The translations under genes and the position numbers were made by a program. Positions 28,031-50,752 of a stretch of DNA of 64,000 bases are shown piece by piece. Below the pieces are notes generated by a model. It was not told the origin of the DNA. It worked only from the letters and a program-made list of their open reading frames with translations, and did not search any database. This stretch comes from a virus. The stretch is taken from IMG/VR virus record IMGVR_UViG_3300023063_000001, positions 19,572-83,571 of that record. The stretch is one strand, 5' to 3'. Position 1 is the first letter of the stretch, and each line of letters opens with the position of its first letter.

Positions 28031-28081
28031 ATTCTCTCCTTATCTGGAGAGGGGCAATAAAGCCCCATCCCTCTTCTTTAT

Positions 28082-28615
28082 TTAGCTAATCCATTTGGCT
28101 GGAATAGTTACACCTAAGCTAGCAGCTTCGTCAACCAAAGCACCATCAACTTTACTGTTACCACCAAGAATATCTTCAAGCTTGTTAACACGTACCACCC
28201 ACTCACGGGTTTCCATTGTGTTACCATACATTGCATTTGGTTTAACAGCTACATAAGCTTGATAACCATAGTGTAGCGAACGGCCAGATGTGTCTTTAAC
28301 AGTAATAGAGAACAAGTTATCGCTTGACTTACCACGAATGTCACGAGCAAACAAAGCATCAAGAATATCATTGGTATCTGAAGTCATCTGTAGTGGGATG
28401 GTAATGTTAGCTTTATCCCAAACAGCATTATAGATACGAGTTGTATTGCCGTAAGCCCCAACTGATTCAGACCAAGCGTCTGAACGCTCGATTCTCACGA
28501 TCTCTGATTCGCTCACACCGTCAACAATATGTGAACGAGGGGCACCATTATTATCTTCCCAATCAAGAATTATATAAACTTGCGTGGGATCATAACTACT
28601 AAGCATACCACTCAT
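28082..28615 (-). CDS. Major tail tube protein (DUF3277-like)
   Basis: SYDP..LQMTS..VKDTSGRSL..REW; follows sheath, followed by a hairpin. Confidence 0.78.
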   Translation of the reverse strand: MSGMLSSYDPTQVYIILDWEDNNGAPRSHIVDGVSESEIVRIERSDAWSESVGAYGNTTRIYNAVWDKANITIPLQMTSDTNDILDALFARDIRGKSSDNLFSITVKDTSGRSLHYGYQAYVAVKPNAMYGNTMETREWVVRVNKLEDILGGNSKVDGALVDEAASLGVTIPAKWIS

Positions 28616-36388: not shown

Positions 36389-37975
36389 TTAACGGATGTT
36401 GTTGAGAGGGTTACTGGTTCTTTCGAAACCAAAAGATTGCATGCCGGAGAGGAAGTTTGGTACAGTGCGTTTGGATGCTACAGCTTCGAAGGCATCCGAG
36501 CACGCATCACATAAATCATCGTGACCTGCCTCGCCACTACGACGGGTTCCATCAAACACCTCCACTTGATTGTAAAAAAAGGATAAATCATTGGTTACCC
36601 CGTTTTCAAAATCAGTAGCACAATTCTTTAGAATCTTCATACCACCGTTCATTACAATAGATGCAAAAGGCTTAAACCTATCAGCTTTTTTACCTTGTGC
36701 CCTTAACTGTCTGCACATAAAACCGGCTGATGAAATATCCCTAGATAAGACACTGTTTGTAAACTTAGCCCCAGGGCCTGGGTCCAAAGGGATAATTATA
36801 TCTGTCCTTTTCCCATCTTGATAAGCAGCTTCAAGGATAAAAGGTAGCCACTCTCCCGGAAGAATACGAGTCTGCTTGATGTCATGAATAAAATAAGTAC
36901 CATCTTTGAGGCGACTCATTTTCACTGAAACTGTATAGTCCGGAGAACTGTTCTTTTCACTTTTCTTGGAAAAGGCAAAATCATAAGCGCGGACTGTGCA
37001 ATCAATGTCTGTCCAAGCGGGTTCTTGACTTTCTTCAATGAACCACTCGCGGCGCACCATGCCTGAACCTTCTTCGCGGGCCTCCCACGAGCCATAAAGA
37101 AGAATTTCTTTTTGTACGCGTGGCAATCCTTCAAGGAATGCTATATAATTATCTTCAATGTATGGGTTGTCATAAACAGATGCTGAAATCCAAGCAAACG
37201 AAAGAGGTTTAATTTGCTTCTTATCCGTATCCGGCAACAAGTCGCCAAAGGAATCTCTTCGTCCATGTTTCTCAAACATCTGATCCCGAGATTCAGCCCA
37301 AATCATGTTGTTGCCGTCACGGATAAACCAGCGCACAACACCTTGTTTAGCTGGGTCAGGCCTGCCAAAGAACTCACTTCCCTCTGGATATAAGTACCAC
37401 CCAACCCACTTCTTCACCCAGCTATCAGGCGAGGGGTTCATGGTAGCCCTCATCACCGGTTTCATTTCTGCTTTTGTACGAAGGCGGGACAAAATATAAA
37501 GAAATTGACTTTCTTCAAACTGACAAAGTTCGTCTAGGACCGCTGAACTAATTTGTGCCCCTTGAAAATTGCCCGTATCATCAACACTTTCAAAGTGCGT
37601 AAAGGACACTTCAGCTTTCTTTTCTAAACCCTGCACCGGTCCAAAGTTAATCTTCATGTCCTTGATTCGAACACGAGCATTTTCATCAAAATCTTTATAT
37701 AGGCTTTTAGCTTCGTCCCAAATTGCTCCGGGTTTAGTAAGCATGGGGGTTGTTCGGCGAATCACAATACCCTTATAATTAGGTAAGTGAATATATTTCA
37801 TGTGATGAATAAGCGCGGCAAAAGTCTTCCCTCCGCCAGCTTGCCCCCCATAGAAGATTATATCAACTTCTTCACCTTCTTCTGTCGCATACTTACTACG
37901 TTTTCCTGTACCATCTCTTAGATTTAAGAAGAGGGCTTGAGGTCGGCTTGCGGGGGCAATAATTTGTCCTGACAT
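36389..37975 (-). CDS. terL: Terminase large subunit
   Basis: Walker A GGQAGGGKT, Walker B VLDE, TMNP, RAYDFA, HDDLCDA. Confidence 0.95.
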   Translation of the reverse strand: MSGQIIAPASRPQALFLNLRDGTGKRSKYATEEGEEVDIIFYGGQAGGGKTFAALIHHMKYIHLPNYKGIVIRRTTPMLTKPGAIWDEAKSLYKDFDENARVRIKDMKINFGPVQGLEKKAEVSFTHFESVDDTGNFQGAQISSAVLDELCQFEESQFLYILSRLRTKAEMKPVMRATMNPSPDSWVKKWVGWYLYPEGSEFFGRPDPAKQGVVRWFIRDGNNMIWAESRDQMFEKHGRRDSFGDLLPDTDKKQIKPLSFAWISASVYDNPYIEDNYIAFLEGLPRVQKEILLYGSWEAREEGSGMVRREWFIEESQEPAWTDIDCTVRAYDFAFSKKSEKNSSPDYTVSVKMSRLKDGTYFIHDIKQTRILPGEWLPFILEAAYQDGKRTDIIIPLDPGPGAKFTNSVLSRDISSAGFMCRQLRAQGKKADRFKPFASIVMNGGMKILKNCATDFENGVTNDLSFFYNQVEVFDGTRRSGEAGHDDLCDACSDAFEAVASKRTVPNFLSGMQSFGFERTSNPLNNIR

Positions 37976-38529
37976 TCAAACTCCTCAAGACTAAACCTTT
38001 TAAAAACAGACTCTATACAAGTTGAAGAAACATTATATTTAGCTGCAAAATCTTTTTGTAAAACACCTTCAACCCTTTTCTTGCAATTCGTAAGAATATC
38101 TATAACAGCTTCCTTGTCTAATTTAGCTAACTTACTTTCTAATTTAGAGGCTGTTACTTTAGTCAAACCCGTTGCAAGAGCATGTGATTTATTTTCAGCG
38201 TAGGTATTCCACTCAAGATTCTCTACTTGGTTGTTAGTCTTATTTCCATCAATATGGTTTATTGTAATCTTAGTTTCAGGATTAGGTATAAAAGATTTAG
38301 CAACTAGCCGATGGATCATACAAGTTTCCCTAACACCCTCTAAAGAATAAAAGTGTAGGGTTGGGTAGCCTGATGTACCAACTGAAAATTTAAGAATCTT
38401 TTCTTTATATGGGTAAACACGCCCATCTTTATAAATTATAGTTTTAGCTAAAGCTTTAACCCTACCTAAAGAACTAACTTGATATAAACCTTCATACCCT
38501 TGTATATCTTTCCAAACTTCTTCATTCAT
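37924..38529 (-). CDS. Free-standing HNH homing endonuclease (NUMOD4 + HNH_3)
   Basis: EVWKDIQGYEGLYQVSSLGRV; IHRLVA..INHIDGNKTNNQVENLEW; overlaps terL start by 52 nt. Confidence 0.9.
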   Translation of the reverse strand: MNEEVWKDIQGYEGLYQVSSLGRVKALAKTIIYKDGRVYPYKEKILKFSVGTSGYPTLHFYSLEGVRETCMIHRLVAKSFIPNPETKITINHIDGNKTNNQVENLEWNTYAENKSHALATGLTKVTASKLESKLAKLDKEAVIDILTNCKKRVEGVLQKDFAAKYNVSSTCIESVFKRFSLEEFECQDKLLPPQADLKPSS

Positions 38530-38559
38530 GTAATTTAGTCTCTTAATAAAAAGAAAACT

Positions 38560-38660
38560 GTGTGCCTCCCGGCAAGACATGAGTATAGGAGCGTTTCACA
38601 ACGAGTCCTGAATAGGTGAGGGCGTCATCCCGACGAGCCTCGGTGTTGCTTTTATACAAC
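38560..38660 (-). ncRNA. Structured leader with two related hairpins
   Basis: CGTC-GGGAT-GACG and AGGA..CGTT-GTGA-AACG..TCCT. Confidence 0.4.
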
Positions 38661-38663
38661 TCT

Positions 38664-39116
38664 TTACTCTTCACCACTCACATCATCAACACCGTCTTCA
38701 ACGGCCTTCAGATATTTCACCTGCATAACCGAGCGCTGGCGCCCCTTGACGCCTCGACTCTGAACTGCATCTTTGAAATCTTCCCACTCCATAGCCTCTA
38801 GATCTTCTGCTGTAAACACAGAGTCCTTCAAAGGAACAGGAATAGTATGAATCCCCGGTTCCATCCGTAGAGTCTTATCTGTCTCAATCACAAGACTTGC
38901 TGTCAACGGGAAACCTTTAAGACGTGGGAATGTATTGTCTTTCAATACAAACCCTTGCTTACCAAGCTCAAGAATCTTCTTTACAAAATCAACAGGGCTA
39001 CCCATTGATAAATTAACTGTTTGTTCTGCCACGTTTATTCTCCTTTGTTCTAGCTTGTGGGGAGAGTTTAACATTGATTTTACATCCCTGTCAATAGTCT
39101 GAGTGTTTATTTTCAA
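38664..39116 (-). CDS. Hypothetical protein with SAP-like C-terminus
   Basis: FTAEDLEAM..GVKGR pattern. Confidence 0.55.
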   Translation of the reverse strand: MKINTQTIDRDVKSMLNSPHKLEQRRINVAEQTVNLSMGSPVDFVKKILELGKQGFVLKDNTFPRLKGFPLTASLVIETDKTLRMEPGIHTIPVPLKDSVFTAEDLEAMEWEDFKDAVQSRGVKGRQRSVMQVKYLKAVEDGVDDVSGEE

Positions 39117-39180: not shown

Positions 39181-41217
39181 TTATAACAAGACTTCTTGTG
39201 CTGACATAAATGTAAATGTAGGTGTTTGTGTTACGTTCACTGTCCTAAGACGCACAAATTTACCTAGTGGAATAACACCAGATAGATTTGCTGTACCAAG
39301 ACTTGTGATACTAAGTACACCACCTGTACTGTTCCCTGATGATGTGACAGTAGTTACGCCTGTCGTAAATCCAACCTCGTTTGCATACTCTAAATAAACT
39401 CTACCACTTGCTCCTGCAATCAATACAGCAGACACTGTAATATCTACAGCATAACTTACTATAGCATCTTGTGTTGTGCTGATTTGAAATGCAGTGTTTA
39501 AAGTACGTGTGGGGTTGGCAAACGTCCTTGTAGGAATGGGAAGAGTTGCTAATGATCCATCACCACGGACATATTGAGATACTGTACCTGTTGGAGTATT
39601 AAACTTAGTTGACAATCCGCTTGTCAATGCACTTGTTGTAGCATAAGTGGATAGTGTGGTTGTAAGGCTAGTTGTTGTTACACCATCTGTAATTCCATAA
39701 CCACTTAATGTTGTAGGCTTACCTGTGATCGTGCTGTATGGAATATTAGCACCTACACTAATCTTCCCATCAAGACTTGTCTGTAAGCCTGTCACATCAC
39801 TAATAACATGTGTATGGTTTGTAGCTGCTGCTCCAACATCCAAATTGGTTAAGACTACAGCCCCTGTCTTTGTGTTAACAGACGTGACAGGGTAGGTAAC
39901 AGTAGTAAGATAGCCACTGTCGTTTGTAAGCTGTGATGTCTTTGTTACAACTGTTGGAACACCTGTTAATGTACTATAAGGAATACTAGCCCCTGTAGCA
40001 ATAGCTCCTACATCCGAAGCTGAAAGAACAACAGTTCCTGTTTTACTATTGACACTTATGACAGGATAGTTTACAACAGGGATAGTTGGCTTATTAAGAA
40101 TAAAAGCCACACCAGATGTTGCATTCCAATCTGAATTCACTTGTGCAGCAGGAATTACAGGCGTTCCTGTAAGCTGTAAATAGGGGATTGCTGTACTTGT
40201 CCCAATCTTGCTATCCAGCGCGTTTTGTAGCCCTGTAACGTCTGCTATAACGTGAGTGTGTGGGGTAGGAACGAATGCAGCAGGAACGTTGCTTAGGCTC
40301 GTATATTTCCCGTCAAATAGGGCAGGTTTGTTCAATATCTGGCTAACACCAGCAACACTATTCCAATCACTGTTAACTTGTGTAGGAGATGCTGGTATTG
40401 TCACTGCACCAGTTTGTCCATTTACAGATGTTACACTTGTTGCGGGGATCATTGCTTTTACAGCATTAAGATCATTGGTATCAACAAGACCAATATAATA
40501 GCCTTCTTGAATGATTGCTGAAATCTTTGGAATTCCTGTAGAGCTATTTCCTAGGAGTGCATAGTTGTCAGCAACAATATCAAATATTAAAGTTGTACCT
40601 GAAGTCAAGATAAGAGAGGTATCTTGATAATCAATAATATTATCACCTGTTGAAAGGTTGGTGCCATTACTACCAGACACCCAAGCTGACTTACTAGGGA
40701 AATACTTTACTGCAATATTGCTTGTCTTGTCTCTAATTCTAAGCCTTACATTTGTCATTGCCGATGATGCTGTGAATATCAAAGCATTTGATCTAGCTGT
40801 AAGGGTTGTTGTGTATTCAAAAGAAATAGGAGATGTTAAAACATCGCTTCCTGATGTAGCTGAGAACGTCCGTTCGGCTTCTTTCAAATAAAAATAGTAG
40901 GGTTTTGATGAAGCTGCATTTCTTGGAACTGAGTAGTCTACTAATTGGTACCTATTAAGGGACACCATATCTTGAATGGCAAGAAAACTTGCTGATTCAG
41001 ATAGCCTTAAGACATCACCAAAATCCACTGATCCTGATTCTACAGCAAACCCTATTGGAGCTAGTAGGGCTCCTGAGGAAAGCATCATAAGGCCTGAGCC
41101 TTGCAGAGTTCCATCTTCTGCTTTATAAGGAACTTCGTTAACACCTAAATTATCTAGGTTAACTCCGCTATCCCCTTCAATGATTGTTGTATTGTTTCTA
41201 TTAGGAATAATACTCAT
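39181..41217 (-). CDS. Fibre-like virion protein with internal repeats
   Basis: Repeats QVNSDWN..ILNKP, V.SVN..TG.V and HTHVI.DVTGLQ..LD.K. Confidence 0.7.
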   Translation of the reverse strand: MSIIPNRNNTTIIEGDSGVNLDNLGVNEVPYKAEDGTLQGSGLMMLSSGALLAPIGFAVESGSVDFGDVLRLSESASFLAIQDMVSLNRYQLVDYSVPRNAASSKPYYFYLKEAERTFSATSGSDVLTSPISFEYTTTLTARSNALIFTASSAMTNVRLRIRDKTSNIAVKYFPSKSAWVSGSNGTNLSTGDNIIDYQDTSLILTSGTTLIFDIVADNYALLGNSSTGIPKISAIIQEGYYIGLVDTNDLNAVKAMIPATSVTSVNGQTGAVTIPASPTQVNSDWNSVAGVSQILNKPALFDGKYTSLSNVPAAFVPTPHTHVIADVTGLQNALDSKIGTSTAIPYLQLTGTPVIPAAQVNSDWNATSGVAFILNKPTIPVVNYPVISVNSKTGTVVLSASDVGAIATGASIPYSTLTGVPTVVTKTSQLTNDSGYLTTVTYPVTSVNTKTGAVVLTNLDVGAAATNHTHVISDVTGLQTSLDGKISVGANIPYSTITGKPTTLSGYGITDGVTTTSLTTTLSTYATTSALTSGLSTKFNTPTGTVSQYVRGDGSLATLPIPTRTFANPTRTLNTAFQISTTQDAIVSYAVDITVSAVLIAGASGRVYLEYANEVGFTTGVTTVTSSGNSTGGVLSITSLGTANLSGVIPLGKFVRLRTVNVTQTPTFTFMSAQEVLL

Positions 41218-41227
41218 TGTCTACTCC

Positions 41228-41524
41228 TCAATCAAGCGTCTGAATAGAAACTTTACCAGCATTAGTTCCCTTCAGCCAAACTCTACTTCCTGTAGGTACA
41301 TCTGTAACTGTCGTCCATCGTTCCCCTGTCGTAGATCCTAAATCCCACCCATCAGTTGAAGCTACAGGAGGGGCTACAGCATTGATGTTAATATAAATAA
41401 CGGCTGAAGCTTTGTTTCTAATGATCAGGGATGTACCGGGGCTTATGCCTGTAAGATCGTAAGCATCAATCCATGTGTTAGTGACTAGCTGTACATCATT
41501 AAGTGTATTACTCATATTAAACAC
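41228..41524 (-). CDS. Small beta-rich protein, possibly virion-associated
   Basis: AGAGG RBS; lies within the fibre module. Confidence 0.55.
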   Translation of the reverse strand: MFNMSNTLNDVQLVTNTWIDAYDLTGISPGTSLIIRNKASAVIYININAVAPPVASTDGWDLGSTTGERWTTVTDVPTGSRVWLKGTNAGKVSIQTLD

Positions 41525-41622
41525 CTCTTATTGTTATTCTAGGTGCCTTTCCAAGAGGTCTTTATAGCCACTGACAGACAAACAACGGCTTTTGTATGAC
41601 ACAGCCTCTTTCTGCTTAAACT

Positions 41623-41640
41623 AGGGGCCTTACGGCCCCT
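41623..41640 (-). terminator. Intrinsic terminator hairpin
   Basis: AGGGGCC-GTAA-GGCCCCT; same core as the 4037 hairpin. Confidence 0.65.
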
Positions 41641-41648
41641 CACACATT

Positions 41649-42977
41649 TTAAAGTGCAGCTACGGTTGGTTGTACAACTGCTTGTAGCGCAACATAACCA
41701 GCGTTGCTGAAGTGTACGTTGTCACTTGAAGCCATACCTGATGCAATCTGAATTTGACCTGAACCATCATCAGCACCAGCAACAGCAGCTTGATAACCTG
41801 GCACTACTGCAACTCCACCGTAGTTATTGGTAAGAAGTGCAGCCTCACTATTCATAAACCGACGAACAGTTGTGTCATATGCACCAAGAGCACGGTATGC
41901 TGTGTTGGTTGGAGCACCTTCCAAGAAATACAGAGCAGGTGGAGCAGTCTTTAAGCTCACTGTTGAGAGTACACGGCTAAGGGCTGTGTAATCTTCTTGC
42001 AGAATAGCTGTTACGGTGCTGCTTGTATAAGTGTTGTTAATTGAATAGGGAGCATAGAACAATGCAGTAGGATTCACTTTATCCAAGTGGTTACTTACCA
42101 TCTGTGAATAAGTGGCGGGGGTCTGTGCATGTAAAGCCGCATTAAACCACTCAACAGGCGCTGTCGGCGAGGAAAGAGCAGCACAAGCACGTTGTACAGC
42201 ACCAAACGCACGAATATCACCACCAATCCCTTCTACAGTACTGTCGCCATTCACCATAACTAGTTTACCAGCACGAGGGCTGAAATAACGGATAGCTGGG
42301 TGAAATACACTGTCATAACTAACAGTGGTGGTGGTGTAGTTGGCAGGAGTTGTAATACCGGCTACAGCTTGGTATGAACCTTTAAGGATAGGCTGAGCCT
42401 GACCTGAAGTAGCCCAGTAGTAGGTGTTATTCGCCGGAATCATTGGAGAAATGGTGGTTGGGAATTGAATGCGTACACAAACAATAGCCTTGGTTCCGCT
42501 ATCGGTGCGTGCCAAACTGCGAAGTGGACTTACATCAAGAATGGTGTAAGAAGGAACTTCGTTTGCAATTTGGGCTGCAATGTTAATAGTGGTGGAACCG
42601 TTCAAAGTGGCGTTAGTCCACGTACCACCTGTAGGGGTGATAGGTACAACGTTATCAGCACCAATCGCACTGGCTACACAAACCTGAACAGTACAGCCGG
42701 CAATTGCTGGACCGTTGTTAGGAAGTATAACTTGAAAACCATAAAAACTATCAGCCATGACTTCTTGGATTGAAGTGTGGGTTTCAATAGTTGTTGAGGC
42801 AGTTCGTGGAATGTAACGCCCAAACCTAGACACAGTAAAGGTGTTGGTTAGTGGGCGTGTACGAACCTTAGCGGTGGTCAAGGCTGCTGGTAGGGTTGAT
42901 GGTAAAGATGAAGGAAGAGCAGTTGTGATAGCAGCAGGAAGCAATGCCGCCAGCGGTACTGAAATATCTGTGGTCAT
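41649..42977 (-). CDS. SGNH/GDSL esterase with N-terminal beta domain
   Basis: Block I GDSTVEG, block III SINN, block V DNVHFS..GY. Confidence 0.78.
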   Translation of the reverse strand: MTTDISVPLAALLPAAITTALPSSLPSTLPAALTTAKVRTRPLTNTFTVSRFGRYIPRTASTTIETHTSIQEVMADSFYGFQVILPNNGPAIAGCTVQVCVASAIGADNVVPITPTGGTWTNATLNGSTTINIAAQIANEVPSYTILDVSPLRSLARTDSGTKAIVCVRIQFPTTISPMIPANNTYYWATSGQAQPILKGSYQAVAGITTPANYTTTTVSYDSVFHPAIRYFSPRAGKLVMVNGDSTVEGIGGDIRAFGAVQRACAALSSPTAPVEWFNAALHAQTPATYSQMVSNHLDKVNPTALFYAPYSINNTYTSSTVTAILQEDYTALSRVLSTVSLKTAPPALYFLEGAPTNTAYRALGAYDTTVRRFMNSEAALLTNNYGGVAVVPGYQAAVAGADDGSGQIQIASGMASSDNVHFSNAGYVALQAVVQPTVAAL

Positions 42978-42980
42978 GTA

Positions 42981-45900
42981 TTAACTTCCGTAAGTGACGT
43001 AATCGCCATTATAAGTAACTGGACTACCATTATAAGTAACAGCATTCGAAGGTGTTGTTGAGGCAGTTTGTGGAGGGTGAGCAACAATAATTGGCAATAC
43101 AACTGTATTATCAGCGCCACTAACCGGACCAACTGCTGTGATAGAGCTAAAGCCATCACCAGCCGCCCAATACGTACCACTCCATTTGTAAGTGTCATAG
43201 AGGGTTAGGGATGCTGCAAAGTCTGTACGGTAGTTTGCAGAACTGGTGCTTGAATCACTTGGTACACCATATTCACCCATAAACACTTTGACAGTTTTCG
43301 CATCTGTCCACCTACCCACTGCGTTAACATACAGAGGCATACGGTCACGAACATCTTGAGTCCATGCAGTTGTATATGCACCGCTGTAGTCAAGGTAGTG
43401 GTGAAGGGATAGTTGTGTCTTGTTGAGTGGGTCAATCCAAGGGACATCAGGCCACCAACCATAACAAGAACCGAATGCCATCAAACCTGAAGCTTGATCA
43501 CCCTCCCACAAGCAATAACCCGTATAACCTGCGTTACGAACAGCAGCAATTGCAGTGTTTGTGGCGGTTGTTATACTTGCTGTAGGAGAACCATCATAAG
43601 ACCAAGTAACATATGGCTGTAGAGTCGACCCTTCAGTAATGTTAAAGTCTTCTACATAACCCATACCTACAAAGCCTTGCATGTTGAAGTTGTAGTACAG
43701 TAGGGTTTGACCAGAAGGCATTGTGAAAGTCAAGCTAACACGGCTACGACTTGTGGTAGCAACTAATGGTATGTTACCGAGTGCAACACCGCTAGCTGAA
43801 GCATACCCACCTGCTGCAAAGTACAGGATGTGAGTACCACCAGTGGCAGTTGACTCGTAGGAGAAGCTAATTGTGTAAGTACTTCCCGCTACTAGCGTAT
43901 CACCACCATCACTGCCATTAATCCTATGGCGAATAGCGTCTTTATACTGGGCTGTTGTAGCTGCCCATGAAAGACGACCTTGACCAGTTGTACCACCAAA
44001 TGAAACGTTAGTGTAAGGTGCAGTTGTAAACCAGTTACTTGTTGTCACTGGATTACGGTTGGTAGGATCGGTCATCAACTGCTTGTAAGGTCTAGCCGTT
44101 GGGTAGTAGTTGAACGCTGTAGAGGCAATTGGTAGACCGGCTGGCTCGTTTACAAAGTCAATACCGTAAAACGCTGTCTTACCTTGAATATAGGTAGCTA
44201 CGTTTGCCCAATCACTTGCCCAAGATGCAACGCTATAGCTGCTTGAACCAAGTTGTACTTGTGCTCCACCCACATAACGTTTGGCGTAGTCGTGACCATC
44301 TAGGATAATTTGCATACCCGTTTGATCAGCATACCCTTGAACCAAATCAATCTGAGACTTACCAGTAGCATTTAATGCAGCGCCTGGGGTATCAAACCAG
44401 CGAGCCAAAAGAATTGGCAAGCGAATGATGTTAAAACCTTTAGCTTTCCAATACTGGAAGTTTGCCAAGGTTGGGAGGAAATAGTTTTGACCTGGGGTGC
44501 CTGGAATAGTACTTTCACTATATTCCATACCACTTAGGTTAACACCACGCACGTAATAAGTTCCTGGGTCAGTACTTACAATAACTGTAGGATCATCCAC
44601 ACGACGCCAATTAGTCCCATCTGAATAAATATTATAGGCATAACCACTTGCTGGAACAAACATTGCTGTACGATATTTATACGTTGCAGCAAGGGCTGTA
44701 GTAGTTAGTTGAGTGATACCCAATACTAGAGGTTGACTTGAGGCTGCTGCTAAAAGAGCAAGAATCTTATCAATCGAGTATGTTACGTTTGAGCCACTTG
44801 TAGCCGCATCATTAACCGAGGGTTTTACTGATATGGCTGAAGCGAGTGCTGCTGGTTGTACGGCTGTACCTGCCAATGTACCTTGGGCTGAAGTAGCTGC
44901 TCCAACGTCTGTGGCGGCTAATGTAATAGTTGTACCAGTCTTACCATTTACTGTCTGAACAGCAGTGTCGGCTTTAGCACCTTGAGCGCTGCTTGCTGCA
45001 CTTAAATCTGTTGCAGTTAGAGTGACAGTAGGGCCAGCTTTACCATTTACCGTAGTGACTTTAGCATCAAGGGCAGATTGCAAACCACTCACTGTAGAAA
45101 TTGCTTGCACACCTGTGTGCGTAGTACGATCCCTTAAGAGAGCATCTGTACTGTTTGCTGTAGCACCCGTAGCAACACTAGCAACCTTGGATTGATCGGC
45201 TGTGGTGTAATCATTGGTGGATAAACCTTTACCAGTAACTGTTGCTTGTTTAGCGTCAAGTGCTGGCTGCAACCCCGTAACAGTGCTGATAGCCTGAACA
45301 CCCGTGTGGGTGGATCGATCACGCAAAGATGCATCACTACTGTTTGCTGTAGCGGCTGTTGCAATACCAGAAAGTTTTGTCTGTTCTGCTGTAGTGTAAT
45401 CATTTGTTGAAAGCTGTTTACCTGAAACAATAGCAACTTTTGCATCTAAAGCAGGTTGTAAGCCATCTACAGTACTAATAGATTGAGTACCAGTCTGGTT
45501 AGCCCGATTCAGAAGGGTCGCATCAGGACTGTTTGCTGTAGCTGCTGTTGCAATGCCTGCAAGCTTTGCTTTATCCGCATCTACATAAGCATTGGTGTTA
45601 GCGTTTGACTCATATGAAGTCTTTACTTGTGCAGGAGTTAGGGCAGGAGAACTGCTGCTAGTACCCAACTGCCAAGTATTATCACTTGTACGCCAGATGT
45701 AGAATAAGGCAGGCGTACCAGAGTTATCTACGAAAGCATAGTCACCAGCACGAGGATTTGTAACACCTGATGTTAGTGCTGCAAGGCTTACAAAGCTACC
45801 ACGAAAAGAGGCTGTATCAAGAGTACCAAGCTTAGTCTTTTCAGCAGTGGTGTAGTCGTTTGTAGAAAGACCCTTACCAGAGATGAAATTAACTTTGGAG

Positions 45901-46595
45901 TCAATAGCTGTCTGCAAACCATCAACTGTTGCAATAGCTTGAGTGCCAGTCTGATTTGAACGGTTTAGTAGAAAAGCATCGGCACTGTTTACAGTGGCAC
46001 CTTGAGCAATGGTGGCTAGCTTTGATTGTTCTGCTGTGGTGTAGTCATTGCTTGACAAAACTTTACCAACAACAATATCCACTTTAGCTGTAAGGCTAGA
46101 TTGAAGGTTGTTGATAGTAGAAATATCTTGTGTGCCTGTATGATTGGCACGGTTTTTAAGGTTTACATCTGTATCGTTGAGTGTAGCGCCTTGCTGTATA
46201 GTGCCGAGCTTGGTTTTGTCTACAATCGTGTAGTCGTTGCTACTAAGAACTTTGCCTGCAATCTGCTGTACAGCAGTGGTAGCTAGCAAACCTTGAGCGG
46301 CTGTGGCAGCACCAACATCATCTGCCTCAAGAACAACAACACCAATCTGACCGTTTACAGAGTCTACAAGACCGTCACCACCGCTACCATTGCCATCAGC
46401 ACCAGCTTTAGCTAGGATATTCCAGTAGGCTAAATCACTGACAGATACGCCTTGAGATATTTGAATAGCAACATAACTGCTACCTGCAAAGCCTACAGCA
46501 TCATTTAATGCATAAGACTTAGTTGAATCATATTGACCCCGCCATACTAGGCCCGGATCACCTTTTACATAATTGCCTAGAATAGGTGGTAGCAT
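42981..46595 (-). CDS. Fibre-like protein: repeat stalk plus C-terminal GH5 glycanase with inserted CBM-like domain
   Basis: RGVNLSGMEY, FNIIRLP, ILDGHDY, NEP, HHYLD, MGEYG, YWAAG; ~60-aa GK.LS.NDYT repeats. Confidence 0.85.
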   Translation of the reverse strand: MLPPILGNYVKGDPGLVWRGQYDSTKSYALNDAVGFAGSSYVAIQISQGVSVSDLAYWNILAKAGADGNGSGGDGLVDSVNGQIGVVVLEADDVGAATAAQGLLATTAVQQIAGKVLSSNDYTIVDKTKLGTIQQGATLNDTDVNLKNRANHTGTQDISTINNLQSSLTAKVDIVVGKVLSSNDYTTAEQSKLATIAQGATVNSADAFLLNRSNQTGTQAIATVDGLQTAIDSKVNFISGKGLSTNDYTTAEKTKLGTLDTASFRGSFVSLAALTSGVTNPRAGDYAFVDNSGTPALFYIWRTSDNTWQLGTSSSSPALTPAQVKTSYESNANTNAYVDADKAKLAGIATAATANSPDATLLNRANQTGTQSISTVDGLQPALDAKVAIVSGKQLSTNDYTTAEQTKLSGIATAATANSSDASLRDRSTHTGVQAISTVTGLQPALDAKQATVTGKGLSTNDYTTADQSKVASVATGATANSTDALLRDRTTHTGVQAISTVSGLQSALDAKVTTVNGKAGPTVTLTATDLSAASSAQGAKADTAVQTVNGKTGTTITLAATDVGAATSAQGTLAGTAVQPAALASAISVKPSVNDAATSGSNVTYSIDKILALLAAASSQPLVLGITQLTTTALAATYKYRTAMFVPASGYAYNIYSDGTNWRRVDDPTVIVSTDPGTYYVRGVNLSGMEYSESTIPGTPGQNYFLPTLANFQYWKAKGFNIIRLPILLARWFDTPGAALNATGKSQIDLVQGYADQTGMQIILDGHDYAKRYVGGAQVQLGSSSYSVASWASDWANVATYIQGKTAFYGIDFVNEPAGLPIASTAFNYYPTARPYKQLMTDPTNRNPVTTSNWFTTAPYTNVSFGGTTGQGRLSWAATTAQYKDAIRHRINGSDGGDTLVAGSTYTISFSYESTATGGTHILYFAAGGYASASGVALGNIPLVATTSRSRVSLTFTMPSGQTLLYYNFNMQGFVGMGYVEDFNITEGSTLQPYVTWSYDGSPTASITTATNTAIAAVRNAGYTGYCLWEGDQASGLMAFGSCYGWWPDVPWIDPLNKTQLSLHHYLDYSGAYTTAWTQDVRDRMPLYVNAVGRWTDAKTVKVFMGEYGVPSDSSTSSANYRTDFAASLTLYDTYKWSGTYWAAGDGFSSITAVGPVSGADNTVVLPIIVAHPPQTASTTPSNAVTYNGSPVTYNGDYVTYGS
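45050..46270 (-). repeat. About five degenerate ~60-aa coding repeats (GKxLSxNDYT..KL..AT.NS.DA.L..R..HTG.Q.ISTV.GLQ.ALD.K)
   Basis: Visible in the translation of 42981..46595. Confidence 0.85.
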
Positions 46596-46925
46596 TTATA
46601 AGCTCTCTGAAGTTATATCTTTAACAATTGTAAAAGGTATTGCCGATGAACTAAAAACATATCCATCAATATCTCTTACAAACTGAACATCCACAGTTGC
46701 ATCCCCTAAAGGCCAAGCTGTGGTGTCTATGCAAAAGAGACGGAGATATTTAGTAGTATCGGGGTCAACCCATGAGCACACAAGGTCTGAGATAAACTTG
46801 TTATATTTACCTGTTCTTATTTGTGATTTAACAGTAACCCCAGTGACAAAAGAACCGGGCGAGAAAGCATCACCAATTGGCGCTATTTGGTCAAAAGAGT
46901 CACCATGGATAATGATTTCTGCCAT
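46596..46925 (-). CDS. BppU-like adaptor / virion accessory protein
   Basis: GDSF..SQIR..TTAWPLG..DVQF..S..F.IVKDIT pattern. Confidence 0.55.
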   Translation of the reverse strand: MAEIIIHGDSFDQIAPIGDAFSPGSFVTGVTVKSQIRTGKYNKFISDLVCSWVDPDTTKYLRLFCIDTTAWPLGDATVDVQFVRDIDGYVFSSSAIPFTIVKDITSESL

Positions 46926-46946
46926 TTCTTATTCCTCTTGTTTATC

Positions 46947-48692
46947 TTATGCCCAAGCTGTTTGTAGAACACTGTTGTAAGTGCTTGCAAGAAGAGGAGC
47001 ACCGTTAACACCGCCACTAGGATGTGTACCATCACCAGTTTGTGAGTTGGCAGTTCCGTTAACAATCCACTTACTTACATCTGTACCTCGTACAGCATCA
47101 TTAACAACAACAGAGTCATATTTAGTAGTGGTGATCAAAGCATTGAACTGTGCAACCACTTGGCCTGGGTTCCAGTTTGCATTGATTGTTTGGTTAGCTT
47201 CAGTTACGAAACTATCTGTGGATGTGGTACGCGGCAACAGACGTGAAATGGAAGCCTTAACACCAGCCTTAACACCTGTAGCACCTTTATATCGAGCAAC
47301 GAATGCGTCGATATTAGAAATAATAGATGCTGCTGTTGGCGGTGTGCTGATACCAAAATCGTTAGTACCCACCATCACATGCAAACCGTCTGGTACGTAT
47401 TTGAAATAAGCCAAAATACGAGCATCAGTTATTAGAGATGTTGACAGAGCGCCTGAGATACCAAAGTTAATGGACGCAGCAGGCGTTGGAAACAATGCCA
47501 ATGCACGTTGGAAGAATCCACCACCAAGGTATCCTGGGTTCAAGTCGTTATAGCCAGATTCAATTGAGTCGCCCCAAGCGGCATAAGACTTGATGGTAGC
47601 ATCTTTGAAAATACCAATTAGAATTGGTGCATAAAGATTACCCGCACTAACCGGAGCAGTGCCTGTATAGCCTGTCGTAGAGTTAGCCAACGAATCTACA
47701 CTTGGGACTGTTGTTTGTGTTGAATCGTAAAACCAACCTGACAAGTTAGACTGCCCGTACAAGTTACGTGGGCTTGTTGGGATACTTCCATTTGTTGGAA
47801 CTGTTGCTTTCATTTTGAAGAACAACACTGTTCCAACAGGAATTACACCACCTGTAAAACCCAAGGCCGTTGGTGTGATCATGTCACTAATCAGGTTGCT
47901 ACCATTGGTCACAACACCTGTACGATTGCCTGAAAAGGTTACAGGAGCAGAAGTGGTAGTTGTTTGAAGGCTAGCCTCTATGATATTAATATCATTACCA
48001 AGGTTTGTGCCCGTACCTGTGTTAGTGTTGGGTGTGTACCATGCCGGAAGGTTTAAAGCAACACCTGTAGCATCACCCGATCCTGTAATCATTTTCACAG
48101 GAACGTAGTATGTGGTTAGGGTGGAGGATGTGGTGGCAATACCATCATTCATCGGATTCCAACGACCCAACGCTTTAACTGTAGCGCTTGCAGCAACCAC
48201 GTTACCAGATACAGAAGTAGTGACACCGCCTGTAGTAGTTGTGATGTCAATAGTGGGTGTACCAATAGCAACACCTGCAACAACACCTGAACTGTTAACA
48301 GTGGCGATAGTTGGGTTGCGAGAGGAGTAGGTGACTGATTGACTAGCGCCTGTAGGACCAACCACGGGGGTAAGTTGTACAGTACTACCAACCGCTACAG
48401 CGAAGGGATTAGGCGTTACAGAGATAGATGTTGGCAAGATAGGAGGGGTATAGATTGTCCCATCCATTTTACGCCAGTTAATCGCATCACTCAAAGCAAG
48501 GAACGGAGGATTACCATCTGTTACAACCACAAGCTCGTTAGCATGATTGGCTGCAAGGTATGTGGTGCCTAATGAAGCACCCGTTTGTGTGGTAATACCT
48601 GAATCGTATGCACCCGCAAGAGCAGCCCTTACAGGACCAACACGAGTGATTAAAGCGGCTTTATCATTACTAGATAGGGACATACATATCAC
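46947..48692 (-). CDS. Ig-like (Big_2) domain plus SGNH esterase
   Basis: PTSISVTP..VGSTVQL..YSSRNPTIATVNSSGVV; GDSIESG, NFGISG, GTND, DGTHP. Confidence 0.85.
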   Translation of the reverse strand: MICMSLSSNDKAALITRVGPVRAALAGAYDSGITTQTGASLGTTYLAANHANELVVVTDGNPPFLALSDAINWRKMDGTIYTPPILPTSISVTPNPFAVAVGSTVQLTPVVGPTGASQSVTYSSRNPTIATVNSSGVVAGVAIGTPTIDITTTTGGVTTSVSGNVVAASATVKALGRWNPMNDGIATTSSTLTTYYVPVKMITGSGDATGVALNLPAWYTPNTNTGTGTNLGNDINIIEASLQTTTTSAPVTFSGNRTGVVTNGSNLISDMITPTALGFTGGVIPVGTVLFFKMKATVPTNGSIPTSPRNLYGQSNLSGWFYDSTQTTVPSVDSLANSTTGYTGTAPVSAGNLYAPILIGIFKDATIKSYAAWGDSIESGYNDLNPGYLGGGFFQRALALFPTPAASINFGISGALSTSLITDARILAYFKYVPDGLHVMVGTNDFGISTPPTAASIISNIDAFVARYKGATGVKAGVKASISRLLPRTTSTDSFVTEANQTINANWNPGQVVAQFNALITTTKYDSVVVNDAVRGTDVSKWIVNGTANSQTGDGTHPSGGVNGAPLLASTYNSVLQTAWA

Positions 48693-49095: not shown

Positions 49096-49515
49096 TTATT
49101 CGTTTTCTTCATACCCAACTTCACCGAGTTTAGGGGTGTAGTTAAGATTCAATCTAGTGACAGGAACAAGCTTTAGGATTTCCGCAGCGTCTTCTTCCTC
49201 TTCATCGCGTTTGCCTTCAAGACGTAGTTTAGTGAGAGTGGACTCTTCCTGAGAAGCAGCACGGTCTAAGGAAATGATACTAGTTATCACCCACTGACTT
49301 GTTGAAAGTTGTTTAGCATCAACATCCCTACCTTCAACACTATCTTTAATGTTCTCTAGAGCTTTAGGCTCAATTTCACGCAGCTTGGCCGCTGTATCAC
49401 GCAGCTTAGACTTCTGTATGCGAATTTTACTATTTGATTTAGTGTTACGGTTACTACGCTCCCCATCAAACTGTGTTGAGCGTTGTGCTGGACTAGGTGT
49501 CTTTTTGTTAGCCAT
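49096..49515 (-). CDS. Putative terminase small subunit
   Basis: Basic N-terminus (STQF..RSN), helical core, acidic tail; first gene of the packaging-direction cluster. Confidence 0.4.
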   Translation of the reverse strand: MANKKTPSPAQRSTQFDGERSNRNTKSNSKIRIQKSKLRDTAAKLREIEPKALENIKDSVEGRDVDAKQLSTSQWVITSIISLDRAASQEESTLTKLRLEGKRDEEEEDAAEILKLVPVTRLNLNYTPKLGEVGYEENE

Positions 49516-49764: not shown

Positions 49765-50139
49765 CTATTGCTTTGGTCCGACGTATTCTAAAGTAAACAT
49801 ACGATTTCCCATCTCATCAGTAATGGCAGGCAAAATCATTCCTTCACTCTCACCATTATTAATTTTTCTAAGCTGTTCTTTTAGAAGTTTGTAAATAGCC
49901 AGATCTTTTTCTTTTGCTGATTCTTGCATATATTGAATAGGTACATGAAGAACATATGCACCATTACAGTCTTTAAAATCAGTAACAGCTACAGCTTCTT
50001 GTTCTTCATATAACTTAAGTTTTTCATAAAGCTCAATAGCCATACTACGATACATAGGGCCATCATTATGCTGACGAGGGCCTGCGTAGTGTGCAGAAAG
50101 ATGGGCAGCAACAATAGAATGTTTTTCAAAATCAGACAT
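49765..50139 (-). CDS. Stand-alone portal-fragment paralogue (124 aa)
   Basis: About 37/77 identities by eye to the portal segment at 35403-35626; GAGGA RBS. Confidence 0.85.
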   Translation of the reverse strand: MSDFEKHSIVAAHLSAHYAGPRQHNDGPMYRSMAIELYEKLKLYEEQEAVAVTDFKDCNGAYVLHVPIQYMQESAKEKDLAIYKLLKEQLRKINNGESEGMILPAITDEMGNRMFTLEYVGPKQ

Positions 50140-50722: not shown

Positions 50723-50752
50723 ATTATAGACACATTATTCTAATACTGTCAA
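50723..50752 (-). promoter_or_regulatory. Consensus sigma70 promoter for the tRNA cluster
   Basis: TTGACA-18 nt-TATAAT. Confidence 0.85.

Follow-up and report, generated by a model that had tools for sequence, protein, structure and literature searches.

Genomes of Pseudomonas Otagoviruses carry, in this order, tRNA genes, an SGNH 'lipase', an 87-aa protein, a fibre and TerL. In the phiPsa374 study (PMC9796965), Table 1 lists the SGNH protein gp053 (42 peptides, 94% coverage) and gp055 (44 peptides) in CsCl-purified virions. The AUCs given there are 1.5e8 for gp053 and 1.4e8 for gp055, compared with 7.8e7 for the portal and 5.5e9 for the MCP, so that the abundance of the two proteins is ~2x that of the portal and ~1/40 that of the MCP. 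In phage S6, the GH5 protein gp095 is reported to degrade carboxymethylcellulose, and infection by S6 is reported to require bacterial cellulose (PMC9544554). SGNH deacetylase fibres have also been described, including tail fibres that deacetylate O-polysaccharide.

We analysed a window of 64,000 nucleotides from an uncultured virus of a leaf-litter metagenome (~40% GC). The genome is best explained as that of a FelixO1/Otagovirus-like myovirus with an enzyme and fibre cassette at the head of its late operon. A preliminary description had proposed a plant-associated Pseudomonas host, for which the GC content, the metagenomic origin and a TerL only ~40% identical to those of Pseudomonas phages provide little support. 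All five ORFs named in that description were found on the minus strand at 39181-48692, and a sixth conserved gene, of 98 aa, had been overlooked. The cassette order is 581-aa, 109-aa, 1204-aa, 442-aa, 98-aa and 678-aa genes. The cassette adjoins TerL and the portal, and it is indeed set apart from the tail genes as described: the baseplate genes (19.3-23.6 kb) and tail fibres (16.7-19.3 kb) are ~20 kb away. It had also been placed between TerS and TerL. The TerL side of this placement holds, but none of the 124-, 139- and 150-aa ORFs matched a TerS family (Pfam 0.01, PHROGs 0.001), and the latter two lacked a TerS match even at E<=10 against Pfam and PDB sequences, nor did any other family or PDB entry match them. 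The ORF formerly called TerS is probably the 139-aa one. Among 11 clade loci from related uncultured phages, homologues of the 139-aa ORF lie upstream of the enzyme slot in nine, and those of the 150-aa ORF immediately follow the fibre in nine.

Table. Coordinates of the cassette genes and their flanking features in the window
Feature	Position	Strand	Evidence and remarks
TerL	36389..37975	-	Pfam Terminase_6N/6C; phrog_979 3.9e-141; downstream boundary anchor
HNH homing endonuclease	37924-38580		Pfam NUMOD4 and HNH_3; precedes TerL
150-aa conserved ORF	38664..39116	-	Between fibre and HNH/TerL; usual TerS position
678-aa core accessory fibre	39181..41217	-	Pfam PTR 1.6e-8, exceeds cut-off
98-aa fibre partner	41228..41524	-	phrog_4770 3.9e-17; 10 bp upstream of fibre gene
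442-aa two-domain carbohydrate esterase	41649..42977	-	Homologues and AF2 fold
1204-aa stalked GH5	42981..46595	-	Pfam PF00150 (Cellulase/GH5) 3.1e-21; PDB 4lx4
109-aa partner of stalked GH5	46596..46925	-	Stop abuts GH5 start, 0-bp gap
581-aa Ig-like + SGNH esterase	46947..48692	-	Stalkless enzyme head; Pfam, PHROG, motifs
139-aa conserved ORF	49096..49515	-	Upstream boundary of variable enzyme slot

The 98-aa and 678-aa genes constitute a core that is inherited across the whole clade and sits just upstream of TerL. Both were present in all 11 clade loci, with TerL and the portal downstream; the 98-aa homologue was located immediately upstream of the fibre in each of them and in Otagovirus UNO-G1W1. 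The Otagovirus gene order is the same as in the window, and the 98-aa protein has its Otagovirus counterpart in the 87-aa protein (E 2e-8). The 678-aa protein, which was also analysed by AF2 and VIA-align, proved to be a repeat fibre as described. Its conserved N-terminal region (1-260) contains a CBM-like jelly roll (~105-245); next come a repeat shaft of the PTR type and, at the C-terminus, a beta domain (~564-678) that matches phrog_28908 and phrog_31472. The N-terminal region had 55 homologues, mostly on contigs of 78-93 kb, and matches in 94 phage records.

The 1204-aa protein is a repeat-stalk GH5 enzyme with both catalytic glutamates intact, in agreement with the preliminary description. 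A fibre-type motif (~1-65) and a shaft of PTR-like repeats (~80-630) interrupted by a small knob precede a pre-enzyme module (~630-670) and a GH5 domain of the (beta/alpha)8 type (~680-1175). The shaft repeats of ~63 aa are evident at the protein level, with S[ST]NDYT at residues 118, 181, 244, 396 and 459, and no tandem repeats were found in the DNA of the stalk gene. The best solved relative was endoglucanase 4lx4 (E 5.5e-21), whose alignment covers two stretches on either side of a CBM_4_9-like insert (~830-1000) splitting the GH5 domain. CBM_4_9 scored 1.1e-5 on a GH5 homologue that is 50% identical (L024) and is also present in the precomputed Pfam annotation of two others (P0005 and P0006). 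The NEP and GEYG motifs align with 4lx4, and R725, H768, N816, E817 (NEP), H1065, Y1067 and E1108 (GEYG) were invariant in all five aligned homologues. Judging from the nearest solved enzymes, the substrate would be a beta-1,4-glucan; GH5 glucanases do not point to alginate, which had been suggested earlier.

The 109-aa protein encoded just upstream is likely a proximal adaptor or attachment module. Homologues were found in three of the clade loci, each right before a large fibre-like protein. The family comprises 577 cluster representatives at E<=1e-3; of the top-scoring 150, two are fusions and the other 148 stand alone. One of the fusions, P0081, is a collagen-stalk protein of 740 aa that carries the domain N-terminally. 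Its former label as a BppU-like adaptor was not sustained, as neither PHROG nor, even at E<=10, Pfam gave a match to the protein. The one lead came from the ESM Atlas, where a single neighbouring cluster set carries BppU_N on 18% of its members and the structural match is LtfC.

Both SGNH proteins were identified as such. In the 581-aa protein, Pfam Big_2 (2.4e-12) and Lipase_GDSL_2 (6e-10) exceed the curated cut-offs, and phrog_19495 matches at 1.7e-49. An N-terminal module of ~85 aa is followed by Big_2 (88-158), a beta-sandwich and the SGNH domain (~370-581), with the motifs GDS374, GISG411, GTND442 and DGTH554 and the residues S376, G413, N444 and D554/H557. The 442-aa protein had no match among Pfam, PHROG or PDB sequences, and its assignment as an SGNH carbohydrate esterase comes from homologues and the predicted fold. 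GDS244-246, N314, D419 and H422 were invariant in eight of eight homologues; the AF2 model (pLDDT 72) has an N-terminal beta-sandwich (~44-230) and a C-terminal SGNH domain (S246, N314, D419, H422). A Foldseek search of the PDB with this model retrieved carbohydrate esterases of the two-domain SGNH type (9kr0 at 6.6e-13, 7toh at 4e-12), 7tog and CE2 enzymes. In BFVD, it matched the 'tail fiber protein' of Pseudomonas phage POR1 (37% identity, TMq 0.83), a 685-aa protein whose C-terminal part corresponds to the 442-aa module.

The enzyme slot lies upstream of the core and holds an SGNH gene in five of the 11 clade loci, a GH5 gene in two and neither in four. It is best explained as an exchange site for carbohydrate-active enzymes, and the window phage has the largest enzyme load seen: the Ig-SGNH protein, the 109-aa protein with its stalked GH5, and the CE2-like SGNH. 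The pairing of a deacetylase with a glucanase recurs. The GH5 and 442-aa SGNH genes are adjacent in the window, with a 3-bp gap. An adjacent GH5-then-SGNH pair is present in a clade relative (L033), where the SGNH is of a different type, and another in the unrelated siphovirus-like contig L024, with 50% and 31% identity to the window GH5 and SGNH, respectively. P0004 and P0016, both reported on contigs of 91,643 bp, were also counted toward this linkage, and among cellular proteins, those of Pedobacter and Pontibacter include GH5+GDSL fusions.

The data on phiPsa374, a cultured relative, make virion association of the cassette proteins plausible. The gp055 protein found in those virions is a homologue of the 678-aa fibre (37% identity, E 9e-53). 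The gp053 protein is an SGNH esterase in the same position, yet it shows no sequence similarity to either window SGNH and has the reverse domain order, and is therefore an analogue only. The 98-aa counterpart, gp054, is not among the entries examined in the 25-protein virion table of phiPsa374. If the portal is set at 12 copies or the MCP at 535, gp053 and gp055 would by our own estimate be present at ~14-23 copies per virion, which fits a 6- or 12-fold site and not capsid-wide decoration. On balance, we lean towards a virion-borne cassette of accessory fibres and depolymerases that would remove acetyl groups from an acetylated host polysaccharide of the beta-1,4-glucan type and cleave it.

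The position of the genes could also be taken to mean that the proteins attach to the outside of the head, in the manner of Hoc or phi24B gp84, giving an enzyme-studded capsid; this corresponds to the 'head' part of the preliminary description. There is precedent in the gp84 esterase, reported to decorate T=9 hexons via DUF1737 (preprint 10.64898/2026.04.10.717836), and in Hex-Dec of Bas63, the gene of which is described as lying far from the structural module (PMC12609058). Apart from the neighbouring TerL and portal genes, this reading draws on Vibrio siphoviruses in which homologues of the fibre N-terminus are flanked by MCP and the Ad1 adaptor, and on homologues of the 442-aa esterase directly after MCP in four IMG/VR loci (L007, L010, L011 and L013), between Hc1 and Neck1 in L024 and, in Gordonia phage Zany, between the portal gene and one for a MuF-like protein. 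In addition, Big_2 of the 581-aa protein matches phrog_215 ('structural protein with Ig domain'), and the N-terminus of the phrog_19495 profile matches phrog_563, a small head-module protein. However, at ~1/40 of MCP, the phiPsa374 proteins are too few for hexon-wide decoration. DUF1737 is absent from the cassette, sequence comparison with the solved capsid-binding domain of Ounavirinae gave no match, and the stalk and N-terminal motifs match PHROG families labelled tail fibre. In 11 class B loci, L017, L041 and POR1, moreover, the homologues come after J, the tape measure or tail fibres. Capsid decoration is thus unlikely, and the head or neck display proposed earlier is possible, the gene position being suggestive and homologues also occupying tail-end positions. 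No support was obtained for the single joint appendage carrying several enzymes that had been envisaged. The preliminary description is partly confirmed in what it observed and partly supported in how it interpreted this.

We consider it similarly doubtful that the cassette encodes a second or third set of receptor-binding fibres, which would recognise a specific O-antigen or capsule, degrade it and set host range, as in the branched systems of G7C or CBA120, rather than serve as a general tool for biofilm penetration. Slot content is hypervariable among otherwise syntenic relatives, which is the usual signature of host-range determinants, and one N-terminal fibre region carries GH5 cargo in the window and SGNH cargo in L028. 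Residues 35-102 of the stalkless 581-aa head resemble the N-terminus of the stalkless L024 GH5 (37%, E 2e-4), and a shared module of this kind would make sense if the head docks onto a partner fibre; the known O-polysaccharide-deacetylating tail fibres are compatible as well. On the other hand, the nearest solved GH5 relatives are endo-beta-1,4-glucanases, suggesting that the backbone resembles a homopolymer more than it does a typical O-antigen repeat, and the core fibre, 40-48% identical across the 11 clade loci, is not hypervariable. Furthermore, phiPsa374 mutations reported to escape LPS-based resistance map to the baseplate-side gp080/gp081 and not to gp053/gp055 (PMC9796965). Very unlikely, in our view, are soluble, non-virion enzymes made late and released at lysis to free progeny from the matrix, or acting as AMGs on plant litter polymers to feed the host. 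The leaf-litter origin and nearest solved folds that include plant-cell-wall acetylxylan esterases and endoglucanases agree with such a role, and soil viral GH5s are often discussed as AMGs, one endomannanase being reported active (PMC6786970; preprint 10.1101/2024.12.20.629349). Relatives with free-standing, stalkless GH5 and SGNH proteins (L033, L038, L029, L032 and L036) could make soluble enzymes, and the 442-aa homologue that follows the endolysin gene in L014 would fit an egress role, which counts against a virion fibre. Against this, the window GH5 forms one polypeptide with a 640-aa stalk matching PHROG tail-fibre families and has its own conserved small partner, the genes are spaced 0-21 bp apart within the late structural operon, and the same-position SGNH of phiPsa374 is listed as a virion protein.

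Under the favoured reading of a virion-borne cassette, the proteins would assemble at a low-copy 6- or 12-fold site, such as the neck/collar or the baseplate periphery. On contact with the extracellular or surface polysaccharide of the host, the esterases may remove O-acetyl groups, and the GH5 may then cleave the beta-1,4-glucan backbone that this uncovers. The substrate could be acetylated cellulose or a polymer resembling xanthan or acetan. The particle would then gain the cell-surface receptor, which would be read by the baseplate fibres (16680-19314). The sugar-cutting and acetyl-removing enzymes are most likely parts of the virion that clear a path through the sugar coat of the host.

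The parent record of 83,571 bp, of which the window covers bases 19572 to 83571, carries direct terminal repeats and is rated 100% complete. The phage DNA occurs in a leaf-litter metagenome run, which may be its source. The minus strand carries all of the late genes, between ~51 and 13.7 kb in the direction of transcription, and the GC content is ~40% for the window and 45 to 47% for the enzyme genes. TerL shares at most ~41% identity with that of any isolate, the best matches being the Pseudomonas phages vB_PsaM_M1 (Ounavirinae) and phiPMW and the Otagoviruses, and the 9.5-kb enzyme and fibre cassette had no megablast match among 50,697 phage records. The ORFs of the cassette were located where a preliminary description had placed them. 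The gaps between the 581-, 109-, 1204- and 442-aa genes were 21, 0 and 3 bp, followed by 124 bp, and the 98- and 678-aa genes were 10 bp apart; this tight spacing suggests two co-translated blocks (581-109-1204-442 and 98-678).

Positions and contents of late-gene features in the window and at related loci (L-numbers, fetched viral and metagenome loci)
Feature	Sequence	Coordinates	Strand	Content
Sigma-70 consensus	Window	50723-50752	-	TTGACA, 18-nt spacer, TATAAT (12/12)
Late operon start	Window		-	tRNA-Asn, tRNA-Tyr, tRNA-Thr, then 124-aa and 139-aa ORFs, then cassette
124-aa ORF	Window	49765-50139	-	Portal-like piece
Enzyme and fibre cassette	Window	39181-48692	-	581-aa Ig-SGNH, 109-aa, 1204-aa stalked GH5, 442-aa SGNH, 98-aa, 678-aa fibre
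After the cassette	Window		-	150-aa ORF, HNH endonuclease, TerL, Mu-type portal, protease, 139-aa ORF, MCP
HNH/NUMOD4 homing endonuclease	Window	37924-38580	-	Overlaps TerL start by 52 nt
After MCP	Window		-	Neck proteins, sheath, three tube-like paralogues, tape measure
Tube-like paralogues	Window	27060-28615	-	157, 166 and 177 aa, all phrog_280
Late operon end	Window		-	Baseplate, two tail-fibre genes, endolysin, holin, spanin
Two tail-fibre genes	Window	16680-19314	-
Variable slot	L028			112-aa homologue of the 109-aa protein, then 856-aa protein
856-aa protein	L028	6993-9563		Chimera of GH5-protein N-terminus and Ig-SGNH body
Variable slot	L029, L036			Homologues of the 442-aa esterase
Variable slot	L030			109-aa-family small protein and collagen fibre
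342-aa protein in variable slot	L030	3392-4420		CapR homology domain (4e-12)
Variable slot	L032			GDSL protein, Otagovirus type
Variable slot	L033			GH5 (9e-13), GDSL protein (4e-12) directly after
Variable slot	L038			GH5 (2e-35), then 105-aa homologue of the 109-aa protein and collagen fibre
Variable slot	L031, L035, L037, L039			No enzyme
134-aa head-module protein	L010	8165-8569		phrog_563, between protease and MCP
134-aa head-module protein	L007	8169-8573		phrog_563, between protease and MCP

Three further observations concern the late strand. The perfect sigma-70 consensus immediately precedes the cluster of three tRNA genes with which the late strand begins, and promoter-like sites in the region were not above the shuffled expectation (19 found, 27 expected). 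The HNH/NUMOD4 gene is situated directly upstream of TerL, and HNH genes occur at varying places around the same locus in the relatives vB_PsaM_M1, L035, L037 and L039. The three tube-like paralogues follow one another downstream of the sheath gene, a place that normally has one tube gene.

The 1204-aa protein was confirmed as a stalked GH5 enzyme with both catalytic glutamates. It matched PF00150 in two stretches (76.5 bits against a cut-off of 23.5, E 3.1e-21), which carry the NEP and GEYG motifs, and its best solved relative was the endoglucanase 4lx4 (E 5.5e-21), Cel5A of Pseudomonas stutzeri, with GH5_5 as the candidate subfamily. The motifs N816-E817-P and G-E1108-Y-G aligned with the same motifs of 4lx4. 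The residues R725, H768, N816, E817, H1065, Y1067 and E1108 were invariant in all five GH5 homologues, and W1143 was replaced by phenylalanine in one of them. A (β/α)8 barrel is predicted by sequence homology, and every one of the nearest solved chains is named endoglucanase or cellulase. In contrast to endo-β-1,4-glucanases of the 4lx4 type, however, the window enzyme has a ~200-aa CBM_4_9-like insert that separates the acid/base strand from the barrel's second half, and it hangs on a 640-aa fibre stalk. The insert of a 50% identical homologue on L024, a siphovirus-like metagenome contig, scored as CBM_4_9 (1.1e-5), as did the precomputed Pfam assignments of the homologous proteins P0005 and P0006. 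The stalk consists of five protein repeats of ~63 aa, scoring 23 bits for PTR (PF12789), under the cut-off of 27; it had no match in the PDB sequence search, and TRF detected no DNA-level tandem repeat in the stalks. A relative whose GH5 domain is 81% identical (P0003, 1794 aa) has an extra segment of ~590 aa between stalk and GH5 domain, which may be a second enzymatic or β-helix domain on the same fibre.

Both proposed SGNH enzymes also held up. The 581-aa protein matched Big_2 (2.4e-12) and Lipase_GDSL_2 (PF13472; 6e-10, 40.3 bits against 32.9), both above the curated cut-offs, and contains all four SGNH blocks (GDS374, GISG411, GTND442 and DGTH554); the PDB sequence search returned only Ig-domain matches for it. 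The 442-aa protein had no Pfam (E ≤ 0.01), PHROG or PDB sequence match, and family models came close to it only through homologues: PF13472 is precomputed on the homologous protein P0021, and the homologue in L036 scored 21.9 bits, below the cut-off. Its assignment comes from conservation and structure prediction. GDS244-246 (with S246), N314, D419 and H422 were invariant in all eight homologues, and the AF2 model (pLDDT 72) matched the PVA esterase 9kr0 (6.6e-13) and the acetylxylan esterase 7toh (4e-12) over the full length, with a Foldseek probability of 1.00 to many SGNH esterases (TMq of 0.59 for 9kr0 and 0.60 for 7tog). The C-terminal half of the model matched TesA, CE3, sialate esterases and other SGNH enzymes. 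The domain order, a β-sandwich followed by SGNH, is that of CE2, yet the CE2 chains 2waa, 2wab and 2wao reached TMq values of just ~0.28 to 0.29 (E 1e-6 to 4e-5), and the full-length superposition was better on PbeAcXE and the PVA esterase. As modelled, the 442-aa protein has an SGNH fold with a Ser-Asp-His triad and an oxyanion Asn. The two SGNH proteins were also considered as close paralogues, and this was rejected (hhalign probability of 2.9%). A side observation concerns phrog_19495, the Ig+SGNH family that fits the 581-aa protein best: its N-terminal positions 7 to 80 are matched by the 134-aa head-module protein of L007 and L010, so that some phrog_19495 members may be head-protein fusions.

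The remaining proteins of the cassette fared differently. The 678-aa repeat fibre stands, as its PTR match (PF12789, 34.9 bits) exceeds the cut-off of 27. The 98-aa gene preceding it (phrog_4770, 3.9e-17) was absent from the preliminary description. The label of the 109-aa protein as a BppU-like adaptor was not borne out, since neither PF10651 nor any other Pfam family matched it even at E ≤ 10; the leads are that 18% of the members in one neighbouring cluster set of the ESM Atlas carry BppU_N, and that the structure resembles LtfC (TM 0.73). A profile of its family retrieved 577 cluster representatives at E ≤ 1e-3, and among the best 150 of these, 148 were free-standing (65 to 142 aa) and 2 were fused. 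One fusion, P0081 (740 aa), carries the 109-aa domain at residues 10 to 112, ahead of a collagen triple helix. This arrangement is a hint, of the Rosetta-stone type, that the 109-aa protein serves as proximal module to the fibre encoded after it. A junction motif shared by P0081 and the GH5 N-terminus (7 of 14 identical) was not significant (E 0.32). The 109-aa and 98-aa proteins were found to be unrelated to each other. The cassette had further been described as lying between TerS and TerL; no TerS could be named, the 139- and 150-aa ORFs having no Pfam, PHROG or PDB sequence match, though a strongly diverged TerS may be present. Judging by its similarity to residues ~230 to 315 of the relatives' portals (29 to 43% identity, E down to 2e-17), the 124-aa ORF is a free-standing "mini-portal" piece.

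We compared the locus among relatives found with the N-terminal 260 residues of the fibre, which had 55 homologues at E ≤ 1e-3, most of them on contigs of 78 to 93 kb. Fourteen IMG/VR loci were fetched. Apart from a 2.3-kb fragment (L034) and the distant L040 and L041, these were eleven syntenic members of the clade in which both flanks are present (L028 to L033 and L035 to L039). Local BLAST showed a 98-aa homologue immediately upstream of the fibre in all eleven, a 150-aa homologue downstream of the fibre in nine and a 139-aa homologue upstream in nine. TerL followed in 11/11 and the portal in all ten loci that reach it (L031 stops just past TerL). Cultured Otagoviruses show the order tRNAs, SGNH "lipase", 87-aa protein, 603-aa "minor tail protein", TerL and portal.

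The slot between the 139- and 98-aa genes, on the other hand, differed among the eleven relatives (see the table), holding an SGNH gene in five, a GH5 gene in two and a 109-aa family member in three, and in all three the 109-aa homologue directly preceded a large fibre-like protein. The first ~110 residues of the 856-aa protein of L028 matched the N-terminus of the GH5 protein (43% over ~105 aa), and residues 339 to 835 matched the Ig/sandwich/SGNH body of the 581-aa protein (29% over 530 aa). This chimera directly documents a swap of cargo on a single type of stalk. The GH5 of L038 lacks the insert and matched 4lx4 over the full length (6e-58), so the slot accommodates members of one GH5 group whether or not they carry the CBM insert. 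The slot of L030 also contains the 342-aa protein with a CapR homology domain.

The combination of glucanase and esterase recurs in a phage with other structural genes. L024, the one locus that the metagenome scan retrieved, has head and tail genes unrelated to those of the window. Its 693-aa GH5 has no stalk and shares 50% identity with the window GH5, the insert included; a 447-aa homologue of the 442-aa esterase comes directly after it (31%, E 4e-53), and elsewhere the contig has a collagen fibre sharing its C-terminal domain with the 678-aa fibre. The GH5 relative P0004 and the esterase relative P0016 are both reported on 91,643-bp contigs and presumably lie on one contig. Bacteroidota proteins (P0007 to P0009, from Pedobacter, Pontibacter and relatives) mirror the phage pair with GH5 and GDSL/SGNH in one chain. 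That a glucanase and an acetyl-esterase move as a pair among unrelated phages speaks for an attack in two steps on acetylated β-glucan exopolysaccharides. The GH5 itself is rare, with 4 close relatives in a collection of 5.8 billion proteins. By tblastn the domain was found in 2 of 50,697 phage records. One is a faecal phage; the better match is LucasX, a phage of Xanthomonas (33% over 88% of the domain), in which PF00150 again aligns in two pieces. Neither the GH5 domain alone nor a five-sequence alignment retrieved an IMG/VR relative besides the window's own record.

The closest cultured counterpart is the Pseudomonas Otagovirus phiPsa374, which has tRNAs, esterase, small protein, fibre, TerL and portal in the same position and order. 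The N-terminal region of its fibre is homologous (37%, E 9e-53), as is the small protein (34%, E 2e-8), whereas TerL is only ~36% identical. It differs in having one esterase, which belongs to another SGNH lineage and has the opposite domain order (SGNH domain N-terminal), and in having no GH5, Ig-SGNH protein or 109-aa partner, so that the window phage adds ~6 kb of enzyme cargo. The Otagovirus "lipase" was rejected as a homologue of either window SGNH, with which it shares no BLAST similarity; it is an analogue only. CsCl-purified phiPsa374 was subjected to LC-MS/MS by Warring et al. 2022 (PMC9796965, Table 1). The SGNH hydrolase gp053 (44.7 kDa) is listed there with 42 peptides, 94% coverage and an AUC of 1.51e8, and the fibre gp055 (63 kDa) with 44 peptides and an AUC of 1.40e8, the values for portal and MCP being 7.77e7 and 5.53e9 (PMC9796965). 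Scaled to 12 portal or 535 MCP copies, these figures from a semi-quantitative method would correspond to roughly 14 to 23 copies each of gp053 and gp055, which points to the level of tail fibres and not to hexon-wide decoration. The counterpart of the 98-aa protein, gp054, is absent from the rows available to us of the 25-protein virion table (PMC9796965). By homology to gp055 and by analogy to gp053, the window proteins are probably virion-borne.

Other phages provide parallels for the enzymes. Erwinia phage S6 (Schitoviridae) gp095 likewise ends in a GH5 domain that has both of the catalytic glutamates; this GH5 degrades carboxymethylcellulose, and the phage requires bacterial cellulose, a β-1,4-glucan exopolysaccharide of the host, in order to infect (PMC9544554). 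S6 differs in being an N4-like podovirus, in the N-terminal domains of gp095 (choice-of-anchor D) and in that the passages available to us describe no partnered esterases (PMC9544554). gp095 was not retrieved when the window GH5 domain was used for tblastn against the 50,697 phage records. For the esterases, gp63.1 of E. coli phage G7C is reportedly a virion SGNH esterase that strips O-acetyl groups from a host surface polysaccharide, within a branched fibre in which one protein is said to dock on another, and gp66 of Pectobacterium phage Possum is said to belong to the SGNH deacetylase tail fibre/tailspike class. These are products of podovirus tail-module genes acting alone, whereas the window has two SGNH types and a glycanase beside TerL.

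The cassette had been proposed to form a head or neck appendage, and the evidence on placement at head, neck or tail is mixed. Head-module positions were seen in the clade and in L040, upstream of the terminase, and in Vibrio siphoviruses, where a homologue of the fibre N-terminus lies between MCP and Ad1. The esterase directly follows MCP in four IMG/VR siphovirus loci (L007, L010, L011 and L013; PHROG-annotated in L010 and partly in L007), and the family lies between Hc1 and Neck1 in L024 and between portal and a MuF-like protein in Gordonia phage Zany. Display on the head or neck also has precedents, namely phi24B gp84 (a NanS-p esterase), reported on hexons, and the Hex-Dec and collar-whisker proteins of Bas63. 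These resemble the present case in being carbohydrate esterase or Ig-like proteins of T=9 phages with genes away from the tail genes. The window proteins differ in lacking DUF1737 and any sequence similarity to capsid-binding or collar domains: Pfam scans of the full length and of the first 100 residues found no DUF1737 in the 581-aa protein, and no Ounavirinae CapBD/DUF1737 capsid-binding domain was recognised in it; an Ig-like domain is present.

Tail-end positions were also seen. In eleven IMG/VR loci the esterase follows a tail protein of 1464 to 2035 aa, a pattern called by ORF size; PHROGs annotated L004, with a tape measure, and L014, with central fibre J and then an endolysin. The esterase follows tail-fibre genes in L017, and the 685-aa "tail fiber protein" at the end of the genome of Pseudomonas phage POR1 has it as its C-terminal part. 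In L041, one of the loci found with the fibre, the position is after baseplate and fibre genes. Of the 19 esterase loci, three (L008, L012 and L022) have too little upstream sequence to classify. Residues 1 to 262 of the window fibre were folded (pLDDT 72.9, with 1 to 100 poorly modelled), and Foldseek gave a TM of only ~0.2 to jelly-roll capsids. VIA-align recognised a generic CBM/PHR-like sandwich (Z 9.5 to 10.6), matching a phi812 baseplate protein, a Bxb1 tail-tip protein and a cyanophage A4 capsid chain equally; a sandwich common to baseplate, tail-tip and capsid chains says nothing on the attachment site. A BLAST of all late-strand window ORFs against L026 (a Vibrio siphovirus), L024 and L040 turned up no head, neck or tail protein in common to which these proteins could dock. 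In the phiPsa374 study, the proteomics gives the presence of gp053 and gp055 in particles and not their site, and the resistance-escape mutations lie in gp080 and gp081, on the baseplate side (PMC9796965). We regard it as rather unlikely that fibre and enzyme partners are anchored on the capsid or where head and tail join, instead of on the baseplate. If true, the clade, including cultured Otagoviruses, would have a head-proximal, whisker-like fibre array tipped with glucanase and acetyl-esterases, which would digest the matrix around the whole particle while the baseplate fibres read the receptor. The position by TerL and portal, and that between MCP and adaptor in unrelated siphoviruses, would then reflect a general, hitherto unrecognised class of "depolymerase whiskers" on the neck or head.

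Wherever they attach, the cassette proteins would act as accessory fibres carried on the virion. The esterases would take off O-acetyl groups first, the CBM-bearing GH5 would then cleave the β-1,4-glucan backbone, and the matrix would thereby be opened for the baseplate fibres. One candidate substrate is acetylated cellulose, the reported product of the wss operon in Pseudomonas syringae DC3000; xanthan- or acetan-like polymers may be another, with the host of LucasX as the lead. Alginate, which had also been proposed, was rejected, as neither the GH5 nor the SGNH assignments point to it. What stood of the original interpretation was the enzymes, their pairing and their probable display on the virion; a head or neck site, one joint appendage and a Pseudomonas host are its conjectural parts.

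Virion-borne polysaccharide-processing fibres are a known class; the conserved cargo-swapping locus beside TerL and the mobile GH5-SGNH pair are new. The accessory-fibre locus upstream of TerL is conserved in a clade to which cultured phages for the biocontrol of Pseudomonas syringae belong. GH5 domains of the window type are rare in isolated phages, and GH5s of this kind in soil and litter viruses are frequently classed among the "auxiliary metabolic genes" of carbon cycling. The window GH5, fused as it is to a fibre stalk, more probably belongs to the entry machinery than to metabolism. This bears on how viral CAZymes are counted in soil viromics and calls for caution in regarding soil viral GH5s as metabolic genes.
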